DNA of 64,000 bases from Gammaproteobacteria bacterium. GTDB lineage: Bacteria; Pseudomonadota; Gammaproteobacteria; UBA4575. The position numbers and the translations under genes were made by a program. Below are positions 7,474 through 31,865 of the stretch, piece after piece; within the stretch, counting starts at the first letter, position 1, and the number at the start of each line of letters is the position of its first letter. Location of the stretch: positions 156,929 to 220,928 of the forward strand of contig CBDCTA010000002.1 in assembly GCA_965221955.1 (NCBI GenBank), read 5' to 3'. The notes beneath the pieces are model-generated. The model was not told where the DNA came from, did not search any database, and saw only the letters and a list, made by a program, of their open reading frames with translations.

Positions 7474-7665
7474 ATGCTGATTTTGACCAGGAGAGTTGGT
7501 GAAACACTGATGATCGGTGATGATGTAACGGTTACAGTGTTAGGAGTAAAAGGCAATCAGGTACGTATTGGAGTGAATGCTCCACGTGATGTAGCAGTAC
7601 ATCGCGAAGAAATTTATGAGCGTATTAAGCGTGAAAAAACCAGTGTAAGTGAGTCAACGGGTTAG
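7474..7665 (+). CDS. csrA: Carbon storage regulator CsrA/RsmA
   Basis: [44 protein letters not shown]. Confidence 0.99.
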
Positions 7666-7764
7666 TTTTTCATTTACGTTTCGTTTTTGACTCGTCGTAC
7701 TTTCGGTTTTTTTTAATCACCGATATCAGTAACATAACTAAAAGCTCGTTCCGAGCTACTTCTA

Positions 7765-7965
7765 CTATTCTGAATTTTTTTCGGAAGCTTTAGTGATCAT
7801 GATGTCAAACCATAAATAGATCGCTAAAAAAATTGTCATCGAGCCAAAAAGAATAAGTATCCAGGCTATTACATGGAATTTTATAGGTAAAAACAGAATT
7901 GCTATACCAATTCCTATTTGTAAGATGCCGAGGAAGAAGGTTTGGATAGGAGAGAAAGTAGGCAT
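7765..7965 (-). CDS. Small hypothetical membrane protein (2 TM)
   Basis: 66-aa ORF with two hydrophobic stretches; starts 16 nt after the tRNA-Ser CCA; no clear RBS. Confidence 0.5.
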   Translation of the reverse strand: MPTFSPIQTFFLGILQIGIGIAILFLPIKFHVIAWILILFGSMTIFLAIYLWFDIMITKASEKNSE

Positions 7966-7979
7966 ATTGATGGATGATT

Positions 7980-8071
<92 letters not shown>

Positions 8072-8155
8072 GATTCGAACGTGAGTATATCGAATACCTA
8101 ATAATATATGTAATTCCAATCGGGTTATTCGCTATAATCGCCGGCTTCAAATTGT

Positions 8156-8232
8156 GCGCCCGTAGCTCAGCTGGATAGAGTACTCGGCTACGAACCGAGC
8201 GGTCGGGAGTTCGAATCTCTCCGGGCGCGCCA
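8156..8232 (+). tRNA. tRNA-Arg(ACG)
   Basis: GCGCCCGTAGCTCAGCTGGATAGAG...CTCGGCT-ACG-AACCGAG...GTTCGAATC...GGGCGCGCCA. Confidence 0.98.
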
Positions 8233-13625: not shown

Positions 13626-14102
13626 TCAAAGATTTATAGAATTACAATATTCTATGTAACTCTCATGTATTGAAATATTTTTATTATTAGCTAATTGTTC
13701 CAGATCATAGAGTGTTTTTTTAAATTCATCTTCTAAGATATTAAAAAACACATCCGTTAATGGATGTTTTCCAGTAGGTAGGGCGATGACTTTTTGTTTG
13801 AATTTAATTGAAAAAATAACATCTCTTTTAAATAAAATTTTTACTGCAAATACCCAACGCCAATCCCAAGAATAGGGTGCAAGAGAATCTTTACCTGCAT
13901 AGATGTCTAACAATTCGTCATCTTTTGCTACATCTTCGCTAAATATTATGGCTTGATATAAGTGGTTACTGTTTGAACAAATCAAGTCAGCCTCAACAAG
14001 ATCAGATTTGTTTGAATGATTACTGAGTTCTTTATAGAGAGTAGGGTAGAATAGCCGCAGAAAAGCTAAAAACTTAGGGTAATGCTTAGCCGAATCCATC
14101 AT
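13626..14102 (-). CDS. Hypothetical protein
   Basis: 158-aa AT-rich ORF, no recognised motif. Confidence 0.6.
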   Translation of the reverse strand: MMDSAKHYPKFLAFLRLFYPTLYKELSNHSNKSDLVEADLICSNSNHLYQAIIFSEDVAKDDELLDIYAGKDSLAPYSWDWRWVFAVKILFKRDVIFSIKFKQKVIALPTGKHPLTDVFFNILEDEFKKTLYDLEQLANNKNISIHESYIEYCNSINL

Positions 14103-14160
14103 GCACGGATACTGTGCTAATCCAAATCATCTATCAACCCGTTATAGTCTTTTCATGCGC

Positions 14161-14210
14161 GACCACCATGGATGGTGGAAGTGCAGATTTTGCAGGAGCA
14201 AAAATCTGCC
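14161..14210 (+). repeat. GGA-loop double-hairpin repeat
   Basis: GACCACCATGGATGGTGGAAGTGCAGATTTTGCAGGAGCAAAAATCTGCC. Confidence 0.85.
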
Positions 14211-14263
14211 AAGTAGCTCAGCCGTGATGGGCAGGATACCCAAACGTCGTGAAAGACAAGGAC

Positions 14264-14315
14264 GACCGTCATGGATGACGGAAGTACTAAAAATGCAGGA
14301 TGCAATTTTCAGTGC
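14264..14315 (+). repeat. GGA-loop double-hairpin repeat (nested)
   Basis: GACCGTCATGGATGACGGAAGTACTAAAAATGCAGGATGCAATTTTCAGTGC; stem 1 covaries with the 14161 copy. Confidence 0.8.
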
Positions 14316-14395
14316 GTCGGAAGCGACGAGAGTACTGCAGTGCGAAGCACTGCCAGTTAAGGTTATAGTTATTTTTTAAATTGGTTGGTTAATAT

Positions 14396-14472
14396 GCGCC
14401 CGTAGCTCAGCTGGATAGAGTACCTGGCTTCGAACCAGGTGGTCGGGAGTTCGAATCTCTCCGGGCGCGCCA
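14396..14472 (+). tRNA. tRNA-Arg(TCG)
   Basis: Same body as tRNA-Arg(ACG), but the anticodon arm is CCTGGCT-TCG-AACCAGG; CCA end. Confidence 0.96.
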
Positions 14473-14516
14473 TTAAATTTATAGCCTTTCAGGCTATAAA
14501 TTTAATGGCGTGTTTT
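14468..14516 (+). terminator. Perfect 20-bp hairpin overlapping the tRNA 3' end, possible terminator
   Basis: CGCCATTAAATTTATAGCCT-TTC-AGGCTATAAATTTAATGGCG followed by TGTTTT. Confidence 0.6.
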
Positions 14517-28970: not shown

Positions 28971-31865
28971 ATGTCGATCAAAACAAGTTCAAAATTGAGT
29001 GAAATAAATAAGCTTACTAATGAAACTCTTTCCGATGGTGGAAATTCTACAGCTGTAGAATTGATGTGTCGTTTTGACGGAAGAATTATCGAAGCAAATC
29101 AAGTGGCACGTGATTTAGCTAAAACGTTAAAAGCATCTAAAATAAATCACCTTCTTCCCGACGATCATTTCGAGTTAGTGAATAGAGCATTACATAGTGG
29201 TGATGTAATAGTTTCTGCAAATCAAATTAGTGGAATAAACTTTGAATGGAAATATTTTCTTGATCAAAGAAGCAAAGTAATTCGTATTGAGAGTGTTAGA
29301 TACGAAAAAATGTCGGAAACTGACAGCAGTGCTAGTACTGCATTAGGCGAAAGCTGGTCAAACATTATCGATTCAATTCCAGTTGCAGTTTGTGTTACCG
29401 AAAATAATAGCGATGAGGTTAAATATATTAATCAACTCGCACGTCGTATATTTAATATCATTCCAGGTAATGAAAGACGAGTGTGTATTCGTTTGCGTAA
29501 TTTTTTTTCTGATGCGAATGCCATTAAAAAAATTAATAAATTGCTCGTAGAACAAGGTTTTGTTAGAGATCTTAAAGTTTCTACTCTGGGAAAAAATAGT
29601 AGTCGCTGGGAAAAAGATGAAAAATGGTTGCAAGTAAATATTAAATTAATTCGTAAAGCAGAAGGGTCATTCTTAATATGGACTTTTACAGATCATACTT
29701 GGGGTACGAAAACTGAAGCAGCCTTACTTGAGAGTGAGAATAAATTCCAAAATGTCATTCAAGGTGCCCAGGAAGGGATTTGGGAATGGCAAGCTGGCTT
29801 AGAAGGGTCTGAGTGGTGGTCTCAGCCAATGTATGAATTGCTCGGATTAAAGGTAGATGAATGTGAAATAGGATTATCTCAGTTGCAAAAACTCATTCAT
29901 CCTGATGAACGTGAACTTTTTTCCAATGTTTGGGCAGAATTAATCAACGATAAAGGAAAGCAATTTCTTGTTGAGGCACGCATTGCTGTAAAAGAAAAAG
30001 GTTACAGGTGGTTTGTAATTCGTGGCACTGCTGATTATGACTATACAGGTAATGCCAAAAAAGTAGTTGGTTCGATTAGTGATATTCATTTGCAAAAGCA
30101 AACTCAAGTGCAGCTAGCAGAAGAAAAAGACAAAGTAGTCGCTACATTGCGTTCTATTGTAGATGCGGTGATTACAACCAATGAGCGTGGCGAAGTCCAA
30201 TATATTAATCAGGCGGCGGTCCGATTTTTAAATTGTTCTGAAGGTCAGGCGCGTGGAAAGCATATTGAAAAGGTAATCGATCTTTATGAAGAAGAATCTG
30301 ATCAGAAAATTGAAAACCCTATACTCTCTTGTTTGTCTGGCAGCCAAAAGAAAAATCAAAAATTAAATGCAGATATTGTTACTAAGACAGGTGCCAAGTA
30401 TACAGTACAGTTAATGGTAACACCGTTAATTTCGCAAAATGGCAAACTTTATGGTGCGGTGACAGTGATGAATGATGTTACTAACTTACGTTTATTGGCT
30501 CGACGTCTGCGCTATCAGGCTAGCCATGACTCATTAACTAGTTTGATTAATCGCTCTGAGTTTGAGCGTAATGTTCGAAAAGCAATTCTTAATGCCAAAA
30601 CTAAACATAAGAAAAGCTCACTCATTTACCTAGACCTTGATCGTTTCAAGATGGTAAATGATCTATATGGGCATGCTGCGGGTGACGAGCTGCTTATTCA
30701 ATTTAGTAACTTAGTTAAAAGTAAATTACGAGGAAGTGATATTCTAGCGCGTTTAGGTGGCGATGAATTTGCGTTATTACTTTCTGACTGTTCATTAGAC
30801 CAGGCAGAAGAAAAAGCGCACGAGATATTAAAATCAATCCAAGAGTATAAGTTCATTTGGGAACAAAAAAGCTTTAATGTGGAAGCCAGTATTGGTGTAG
30901 CTGAAGTCAATAAAAAATGTTTTGATCTCTCTTATGCTTTATCGGCGGTGGATGGTGCTTGTTATTTAGCAAAAGAATCCGGTAGGAATTGCGTTCGTGT
31001 ATTCAGGGAAGGTGATGAAAACATTAATCGCCGCCGCGGTCAGGAGCGTTGGCTACAGCGTTTCGATAAAGCATTAAACGAAGGGCGTTTAGTAGTGACA
31101 GCCCAGTCAATTATTAACATTAAGGCGAATAAAGATATACAAATTGATAAGAACGGCTTCGAAATTTTGATTCGAATGCAGGATGATAACGGACGACTTG
31201 TGCCACCCAATGCATTCTTGCCGGCAGTAGAGCGCTATAATCGTGCTCCAAAGCTTGATAGATGGATTCTAGATAAAGTTTTATTGTTACTAGCTGATAA
31301 TCGACAAGTATTATCGCAAATTGATAAATGCTCAATTAACCTTTCTGGACAGTCTTTAGTATCGGAAGGTTTTTTGCATTTTATTATGGCGAAGCTCAAA
31401 GAATACAAGATAGATCCAAGTAAAATTTGTTTTGAAATTACTGAGACAGCAGCAATTGCTAACTTAGATCAGGCCACTTCTTTTGTGCAAAGTCTTAAAG
31501 ATTTGGGTTGCTATTTTGCGCTAGATGATTTTGGTGCTGGATTATCTTCATTTGCATACTTGAAAACGTTACCTGTCGATTTTTTAAAGATAGACGGTAT
31601 GTTCGTCAAAGATATCCATAATGACGATGTGAGTCGAGCTATGGTGAAAGCGATTAATGATATGGGTCATGTGTTGGGTAAACAAACCATAGCTGAGTAT
31701 GTTGAGAATGAGGAAATACTCGATATATTGAAAGAAATCGGTGTGGATTTTGCACAAGGTTTTCATGCTGGTAGACCTGAACCTATTCTAGATTTTTTTG
31801 AGTCATCACAATTTAAAGTTGTAAGACCTAAAGTTCGCAAGTTATTTGCGGTCGGAGGGCATTAA
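28971..31865 (+). CDS. PAS-GGDEF-EAL diguanylate cyclase/phosphodiesterase
   Basis: Several PAS/PAC domains, RGSD I-site, LGGDEF, EILIR, FEITE and DDFGAG. Confidence 0.95.
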   Translation: MSIKTSSKLSEINKLTNETLSDGGNSTAVELMCRFDGRIIEANQVARDLAKTLKASKINHLLPDDHFELVNRALHSGDVIVSANQISGINFEWKYFLDQRSKVIRIESVRYEKMSETDSSASTALGESWSNIIDSIPVAVCVTENNSDEVKYINQLARRIFNIIPGNERRVCIRLRNFFSDANAIKKINKLLVEQGFVRDLKVSTLGKNSSRWEKDEKWLQVNIKLIRKAEGSFLIWTFTDHTWGTKTEAALLESENKFQNVIQGAQEGIWEWQAGLEGSEWWSQPMYELLGLKVDECEIGLSQLQKLIHPDERELFSNVWAELINDKGKQFLVEARIAVKEKGYRWFVIRGTADYDYTGNAKKVVGSISDIHLQKQTQVQLAEEKDKVVATLRSIVDAVITTNERGEVQYINQAAVRFLNCSEGQARGKHIEKVIDLYEEESDQKIENPILSCLSGSQKKNQKLNADIVTKTGAKYTVQLMVTPLISQNGKLYGAVTVMNDVTNLRLLARRLRYQASHDSLTSLINRSEFERNVRKAILNAKTKHKKSSLIYLDLDRFKMVNDLYGHAAGDELLIQFSNLVKSKLRGSDILARLGGDEFALLLSDCSLDQAEEKAHEILKSIQEYKFIWEQKSFNVEASIGVAEVNKKCFDLSYALSAVDGACYLAKESGRNCVRVFREGDENINRRRGQERWLQRFDKALNEGRLVVTAQSIINIKANKDIQIDKNGFEILIRMQDDNGRLVPPNAFLPAVERYNRAPKLDRWILDKVLLLLADNRQVLSQIDKCSINLSGQSLVSEGFLHFIMAKLKEYKIDPSKICFEITETAAIANLDQATSFVQSLKDLGCYFALDDFGAGLSSFAYLKTLPVDFLKIDGMFVKDIHNDDVSRAMVKAINDMGHVLGKQTIAEYVENEEILDILKEIGVDFAQGFHAGRPEPILDFFESSQFKVVRPKVRKLFAVGGH

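Follow-up and report, generated by a model that had tools for sequence, protein, structure and literature searches.

What kind of element is the GGA-rich stretch in front of a tRNA-Arg gene of a gammaproteobacterium from the UBA4575 lineage, where does it come from, and could it bind CsrA? The question arises from a gap of 293 nt in the window (the whole 64,000-nt stretch of contig CBDCTA010000002.1 analysed here). The gap is located between a leftward 158-aa frame (13626–14102) and an intact tRNA-Arg(TCG) and bears what we call the leader. A preliminary description of the window had proposed a tRNA-Arg remnant expanded by nested insertions into a CsrB/RsmZ-like RNA.

Locus and architecture of the leader

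The leader and all of its parts lie on the + strand. Upstream of it is the ancestral promoter block of tRNA-Arg(TCG) (14097–14156), which is common to relatives and contains a -10-like hexamer (14143–14148). A strict sigma-70 scan of the + strand found no full promoter consensus before the leader. The pseudo-tRNA begins with the initial letters of the acceptor 5' strand (14157–14159, assigned by alignment to relatives and to the intact tRNA) and is interrupted by nested repeat 1 of class A (14160–14210), which forms two GGA-loop hairpins with three GGA and has dispersed copies in the genome (20 nhmmer hits). The remaining acceptor strand, the 5' strand of the D stem and the start of the D loop follow (14211–14222). 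When positions 14161–14210 are left out, the joined letters match the start of the downstream tRNA-Arg at 14 of 16 positions, as had been claimed.

The D loop is occupied by core module D. Its 5' part (14223–14262) consists of a GGA-loop hairpin followed by the 5' strands of two helices according to the segment table, and its 3' part (14316–14328) was delimited by alignment. Between the two lies nested repeat 2 of class C (14263–14315), with three GGA, dispersed copies and 19 nhmmer hits. The tRNA then resumes, in agreement with the preliminary description, with the 3' strand of the D stem at about 14330–14335. Taken with two following letters this segment spans 14329–14336, and it pairs with 14216–14219 in both the minimum-energy and the consensus fold. 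A leader-specific closing hairpin of 7 bp with a 3-nt loop (14337–14353) occupies the position of the anticodon arm. The tail and an A+T-rich spacer (14354–14395) complete the gap. As had also been noticed, the hexamer of the promoter block recurs here within an 8-letter word (14362–14369), which places a second -10-like hexamer at 14364–14369. No terminator was found between the leader and tRNA-Arg(TCG), and the leader has no intrinsic terminator of its own. The intact tRNA-Arg with anticodon TCG (14396–14472) was identified by ARAGORN and scores 68.2 bits with the Rfam tRNA model. A hairpin with a T run at 14466–14512 is the first terminator-like site downstream of the promoter block.

A protein-coding reading of the 92-aa frame at 14101–14379 was rejected: the peptide would be of low complexity, and the relative G009 has no matching start-bearing frame. 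The stop-free stretches are as expected at this composition. For the neighbouring 158-aa frame there was no match in Pfam or NCBIfam and no usable match in the ESM Atlas.

The sole copy of csrA detected in this genome is located 6.5 kb upstream of the leader (7474–7665, + strand; PF02599 with 92 bits, NCBIfam CsrA equivalog with 117.6 bits at a cut-off of 73). On its 3' side it is followed by tRNA-Ser and then by tRNA-Arg(ACG). This order (window 7474–8232) is kept in the relatives G001, G004, G007 and G015, where a GGA-rich leader precedes tRNA-Arg(ACG) at 0.55–0.75 kb from csrA. In the present genome the spacer before the csrA-linked tRNA-Arg(ACG) measures only 84 nt and bears no leader.

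GGA content and predicted fold

Positions 14143–14356 contain nine GGA, the number given earlier, and no TCC. The genome mean is 1.9 GGA per 214 nt, and nine or more occur in 0.07% of 214-nt windows on either strand. Seven of the nine GGA are placed in hairpin loops closed by at least four pairs, which ties for second place genome-wide; every non-coding locus with as many GGA loops as the leader is an array of repeats from the same family. The letters around the loop GGA fit what we take to be the CsrB repeat and the CsrA site known from SELEX. Plain GGA density did not discriminate as a genome-wide screen, being dominated by coding regions, and loose hairpin counts by gene context were likewise non-discriminating, being dominated by noise.

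The fold predicted for 14157–14362 has an energy of -75.1 kcal/mol (z = -4.63), a value equalled by none of 200 shuffled sequences. In the minimum-energy fold a helix made of the D-stem strands encloses the whole insert, and this pseudo-tRNA D stem is both predicted in the fold and covarying among related leaders. The preliminary description had seen a structured D-loop insert of about 105 nt. Structured it is, but it actually consists of a ~50-nt module common to relatives together with one nested repeat. The two internal repeats reported at the same time are readily aligned, 14160–14197 and 14263–14300 being 74% identical.

Origin from a tRNA-Arg gene

Relatives supply the simpler states from which the present leader can be derived. 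An element of ~105 nt is found upstream of tRNA-Arg in several genomes of the same genus and in four other genera of the order. It is composed of ~20 letters of the tRNA 5' end, a ~50-nt two-hairpin module in the D loop, the 3' strand of the D stem and a 17-nt hairpin, and is followed by an A+T-rich spacer of 40–47 nt and the intact tRNA. In relatives the initial ~20 letters of Arg, Leu and Ser leaders match each one's own tRNA. According to alignments A1 and A2, the window leader is the same element enlarged by two nested repeats of ~50 nt. Nested repeat 1 is present at the same position in G013 and G009 and was thus inherited. Nested repeat 2 sits directly after the loop GGA of module D and occurs in one of 24 aligned leaders, that of this genome.

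The empty site can be observed at the same chromosomal place. In G012, G014, G002 and G010 a promoter block stands directly before the tRNA. This block recurs, with 23 columns invariant, ahead of the leader in this genome (G000) and in G013, G009 and G001. From this arrangement it follows that the ancestral tRNA promoter now reads into the leader. Both the insertion-poor form, which starts like its cognate tRNA, and the empty promoter–tRNA sites bear out the tRNA origin with nested insertion. Judged by sequence comparison, we regard it as settled that 14157–14362 is a truncated copy of tRNA-Arg, reduced to the D arm and the 5' strand of the acceptor stem, which lies behind the ancestral promoter and carries nested mobile modules.

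The alignment of the leader to the tRNA stops after the D arm; there is neither a T arm nor a 3' acceptor strand. The tRNA model RF00005 (E up to 10) matches the intact tRNA and not the leader, and the same holds for six relatives (E up to 1). A gene tree of the neighbouring 158-aa frame has one supported branch among ten inner branches and joins this genome with the leader-free G014 at 87/90. At the same tRNA-Arg(TCG) locus in another genus (G017; L020, ~1270–1510) a different insert of ~240 nt parts the conserved promoter from the tRNA. It contains seven GGA within ~50 nt and is not matched by the leader model R1 described below.

Related leaders and conservation of the structure

A covariance model, R1, was built from nine leaders, and matches with E up to 0.001 were counted in a sample of 56 genomes of the order, which holds a single family. 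Fifteen of the 56 genomes have a match; on the window leader the model scores 84.4 bits over 14207–14363. The leaders are not confined to one tRNA. They are found before tRNA-Arg(ACG) in G001, G004, G007, G021 and G015, before tRNA-Arg(TCG) in the present genome, G013, G009, G001, G044 and G056 (here twice in tandem), and before tRNA-Arg(TCT) in the present genome (contig 17) and in G001. Two other genera have leaders before tRNA-Leu(TAA), namely G056 and G019 (twice), and a metagenome-assembled genome of another lineage (L033) has two in tandem before tRNA-Ser(GGA).

Several of these loci show further variations. In G056 (L072, 1501–1747), where the leader before tRNA-Arg(TCG) is doubled in tandem, each unit has its own copy of the promoter region of ~42 nt. 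In L033 (391–722) the intact tRNA-Ser is preceded by a tandem pair of truncated tRNA-Ser(GGA) copies, each with the module directly after the anticodon GGA; a third copy of the module lies in reverse orientation inside the first truncated copy. The present genome contains a third tRNA-linked leader on contig 18 (~29280–29650, - strand), ~270 nt before an intact tRNA-Val(GAC). It comprises a duplicated promoter, ~14 letters of the tRNA 5' end, a GGA module of another class and a closing hairpin.

In the alignment of 24 leaders, standard pairs fill 94.1% of the 597 cells at paired positions, and double changes were seen at 22 of 26 pairs. The covariation score of 0.475 compares with 0.19 for shuffled alignments (reached in 0 of 500) and 0.04–0.10 for slid partners; the 24-leader alignment had been fitted to the model, a procedure that works in favour of the structure. 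In two module loops GGA is kept in 21 and 22 of the 24 leaders, respectively, and one core-module loop of G013 has lost it. Sequence identity is higher in the leader (0.73–0.91) than in the spacer (0.52–0.66) in 11 of 12 pairs (G015 left out); for the close pair G004/G007 the values are 0.83 and 0.84.

The closing hairpin is conserved in its own right. Six of its seven pairs show double changes across the 24 leaders, and it is almost identical before tRNA-Arg and tRNA-Leu in different genera. In this genome hairpins of this type are found only at the two tRNA-Arg leaders, which marks it as a feature of the leader and not as a dispersed repeat.

Mobile hairpin modules

The hairpins that fill the leader belong to a dispersed family. 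Profiles seeded from this genome (nhmmer) define five GGA-bearing module classes with 7, 20, 19, 12 and 62 copies; these 120 hits merge into 89 regions. Within the 89 regions GGA outnumbers TCC eleven to one, and of 171 predicted hairpin loops 120 contain GGA, as compared to 18% in shuffled copies. The modules are mostly positioned after gene ends, with 52 in convergent versus 6 in divergent spacers, and in co-directional spacers 41 are in sense and 11 in antisense orientation; these counts rest on crude ORF calls and on the 120 hits, which overlap between related classes. Modules nest into or beside one another's GGA loops. Inserted modules may have four-letter inverted ends and 4-letter duplications, with borders that are ambiguous by a few letters. 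Dispersed copies and filled versus empty orthologous sites, the marks of a mobile repeat, are found for the nested repeats and for the core module. Mobilisation of the REP/RAYT or IS200 type was considered and is unsupported, as no Y1 transposase (PF01797; IS200/REP-type) was detected in this 96.6%-complete genome. A further, plain hairpin class of ~31 nt has 215 copies in this genome. It often stands last in the mosaic arrays that follow gene ends, and its loop sometimes harbours a GGA module.

The core module extends beyond the order. At E up to 1e-6 it was found in 6 of 150 other gammaproteobacterial families, each represented by one genome, in hosts of 51–63% G+C and with strikingly similar sequence. 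In four cases a core module of ~51–54 nt is located inside a long stop-free frame (L105, 1501–1566; L104, 1501–1605; L100, 1501–1559; L108, 1501–1627). The frames with a module in other families are metH (B12-dependent methionine synthase), a FAD-dependent protein and two unnamed frames. In the module-bearing metH the activation domain spans ~18 residues more than the profile. The two unnamed frames look Rhs-like, as suggested by a motif.

The modules resemble Rickettsia palindromic elements and related MITEs, which a review describes as short dispersed hairpin repeats that lie at gene ends and can sit inside ORFs (PMC10969869). Both are hairpin repeats spread over the genome, at gene ends and inside frames. 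They differ in size (~50 nt for the modules versus ~150 nt), and the modules, unlike the Rickettsia elements, nest in loops, land in the loops of tRNA genes and carry loops of the CsrA type. The terms CsrA, tRNA and nesting have no occurrence in the review. In the main texts covered by our literature search, no paper made a connection between CsrA and repetitive elements or miniature mobile ones, none described small dispersed hairpins that nest in this manner, and none contained 20 consecutive letters of the module.

CsrA, GacA and known RNA families

CsrA is present in 52 of the 56 genomes of the order. The UvrY/GacA equivalog does not exceed its cut-off in any of the 56 (best score 178.8 bits versus 280), and the best UvrY-family score in this genome is 125 bits against the same cut-off. 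No GacA box, which we take to be the palindromic motif used in our scan, was found within 260 nt upstream of the leader with three mismatches allowed. The whole window contains 26 GacA-box-like matches, with 37.7 expected.

The proposed likeness to CsrB/RsmZ stands in one respect and falls in others. The GGA loops fit the CsrA site, while the leader lacks an above-threshold match to any Rfam CsrB/Rsm model, a GacA box, GacA/UvrY in the genome and a terminator of its own. At the gathering threshold no model of clan CL00106 matches the window. RsmY reaches 19 bits at 14220–14336 versus a threshold of 57, so that membership is not borne out; the only other CL00106 match overlaps this one and scores lower. 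The best RsmY match in this genome has 24.9 bits and lies away from the leader. With CsrA in 52 and GacA/UvrY in none of the 56 genomes, and with no known decoy in the window (for RsmY, genome-wide), the question is what antagonises CsrA here. What the leader would share with CsrB, CsrC, RsmX, RsmY and RsmZ is the presence of several hairpins with GGA loops and, as we propose, the titration of CsrA dimers. It differs from them in its tRNA-like 5' end, in its proposed co-transcription with a tRNA and in being built from mobile modules.

The leader is covered by no Rfam family. Other known RNAs resemble it in single aspects. In E. coli, 3'ETS-leuZ is reportedly a decoy RNA that is cut from a tRNA precursor, on the 3' side of the tRNA, and sponges base-pairing sRNAs. 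Another study describes sRNAs from rRNA operons, rrA, rrB and rrF, which bind Hfq and CsrA in vitro (PMC8144298). Their likeness to the proposed leader RNA would be that of a regulatory RNA which arises as a by-product of stable RNA and is freed by processing. The target of 3'ETS-leuZ, in contrast, is not CsrA and its position is 3' of the tRNA; furthermore, neither 3'ETS-leuZ nor the rr sRNAs derive from a tRNA or consist of repeats. For CbsR12 of Coxiella burnetii, four ANGGA sites are enough for CsrA binding (10.1101/679134). Compared by that description, it shares with the leader a low number of ANGGA loops and a gammaproteobacterial host in which RsmY/RsmZ cannot be recognised; unlike the leader, it has a gene of its own and additionally pairs with mRNAs.

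The TwoAYGGAY motif (RF01731) is described as paired hairpins with a GGA core loop, of unknown function and from Gammaproteobacteria (Weinberg et al. 2010, PMC2864571). The loops of the nested repeats fit the loop consensus given there; the model itself has no match at the leader with E up to 10. TwoAYGGAY-like units were observed elsewhere in this genome, on contig 5 (52065–52230, - strand, 36.2 bits) and on contig 29 (69046–69208, - strand, 31.3 bits), both under the threshold of 43. These units are larger and different; each combines a long outer stem with a pair of GGA-loop hairpins.

Possible function of the leader

Based on the anatomy of the locus and on the analogy to known decoys, we tentatively favour, at slightly less than even confidence, a leader RNA that is driven by the tRNA promoter, freed by tRNA 5' processing and able to bind CsrA in the manner of a small CsrB. 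What was once the promoter of tRNA-Arg(TCG) alone now reads into a leader of ~240 nt and not straight into the tRNA. The D loop was colonised by a mobile two-hairpin module of ~50 nt, and two more ~50-nt modules of the same superfamily nested afterwards, one of which entered a GGA loop. Leader and tRNA would be transcribed together. The leader would then be released by RNase P, to which RNase E may add a cut in the spacer, and its 3' end would be shielded by the closing hairpin. In the cell the freed RNA would bind several CsrA dimers and act as a small decoy of the CsrB/RsmZ type. Binding of several dimers is suggested by the seven GGA in hairpin loops of the CsrA-site type, together with the two further GGA. 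Co-transcription and release by RNase P are plausible since the ancestral promoter has been retained and no terminator precedes the tRNA. The output of the decoy would be set by the rate of the tRNA promoter, without control by GacA. A tRNA promoter would give most decoy in fast growth, the opposite of the Gac/Let logic, which speaks against this function.

We prefer this decoy function because of the close fit between the loops and the CsrA site, the extreme strand bias (nine GGA to no TCC) and the conservation of the leader-specific hairpin. Moreover, the order keeps CsrA without the usual decoy system, and four such sites are enough in CbsR12. Other observations speak against it. The distribution is patchy, with an empty site in the close relatives G012, G014, G002 and G010, and a leader matched in only 15 of 56 genomes is not the order-wide antagonist of CsrA. 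A loop GGA is lost in G013, and the modules behave as selfish DNA. The seven loop sites of the leader face ~120 GGA loops in the dispersed copies, and the core module occurs in both orientations (L033) and, in other families, inside long frames.

These observations feed a serious rival, the inert, repeat-riddled pseudo-tRNA, because the repeats belong to a genome-wide mobile family and the core module is distributed class-wide. On this account, which we consider quite possible if somewhat doubtful, a constraint-free partial duplicate of the tRNA 5' end would be a landing pad whose D-loop (T)GGA collects modules that would be lethal in a real tRNA. GGA loops and covarying stems would be kept for the movement of the modules, and any binding of CsrA would be incidental and without effect. 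The 89 merged regions in this genome, the near-identical core module in 6 of 150 other families at 51–63% G+C, its occurrence in both orientations and inside open frames, the nesting of insertions into or beside GGA loops, the patchy distribution with empty orthologous sites and the loss of GGA in G013 all speak for such an inert pad. It leaves unexplained, however, the closing hairpin, which is specific to tRNA leaders, covaries and is near-identical before tRNA-Arg and tRNA-Leu across genera. Neither does it account for the 41:11 bias towards the sense strand or for the disrupted copy always being the upstream one behind the ancestral promoter, and no Y1 transposase that could mobilise the modules was found in the 96.6%-complete genome. 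Even an inert leader would illustrate clearly how an incomplete duplicate of a tRNA can shelter selfish hairpins.

The closing hairpin also bears on a rather improbable account of the origin, which would be compatible with either functional reading since it concerns origin. A tiny tRNA-targeting integrative unit, consisting of the closing hairpin, a spacer, a promoter and a replacement for the tRNA 5' part, would recombine into tRNA genes and displace the original promoter and 5' part, which would decay and collect modules. The tandem units of G056, each with its own ~42-nt promoter region, the duplicated promoter at the tRNA-Val leader of this genome and the same closing hairpin before different tRNA species would fit such a scar, and direct repeats of the tRNA 5' part would permit precise loss, in line with the patchy distribution. 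Yet no integrase is linked to the leaders, the spacers are unrelated between loci, and the two promoter regions at the window locus have only an 8-letter word in common. A role in cis appears highly unlikely to us. The leader would tune the output of tRNA-Arg, either because the pseudo acceptor strand pairs with the downstream tRNA at its 3' acceptor strand or because bound CsrA alters processing of the precursor. The 5' acceptor letters common to leader and tRNA, which change together in G001 and G056, and the absence of a terminator between the two are consistent with it. This idea is nevertheless pure inference; the second -10-like hexamer (14364–14369) may allow synthesis of the tRNA without the leader, and relatives manage without one.

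Returning to the decoy function that we favour, a wider extension of it is conceivable, which we judge unlikely. The ~50-nt modules could be selfish, portable CsrA sites across Gammaproteobacteria, planted not only in tRNA leaders and 3' untranslated regions but also within coding frames, and the tRNA-linked platforms could be the lineage's own equivalent of CsrB. Such a platform would have been built by accretion of modules on a truncated tRNA, would use a tRNA promoter in place of GacA and would be released by processing. If true, this would be the birth of multi-hairpin CsrA decoys caught in the act. Under the favoured decoy function itself, a decoy that is driven by a tRNA promoter and released by tRNA processing would wire a much-studied circuit in a new way. 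Apart from that, no paper found in our literature search describes mobile ~50-nt modules with near-consensus candidate CsrA sites, their nesting in one another's loops, or their landing in the loops of tRNA genes and, in other families, in housekeeping frames. The modules offer a concrete route by which repeat-rich decoy RNAs could evolve.

A stand-alone RsmY/Z gene elsewhere in the genome was considered as well. The best candidate, on contig 29 (283162–283366, + strand), turned out to be another module array and not an independent gene, since it follows the stop codon of a 36-aa frame. The array contains seven GGA loops and a terminator, the 36-aa frame has a good ribosome-binding site, and the array after it may be a 3'-end-derived RNA.
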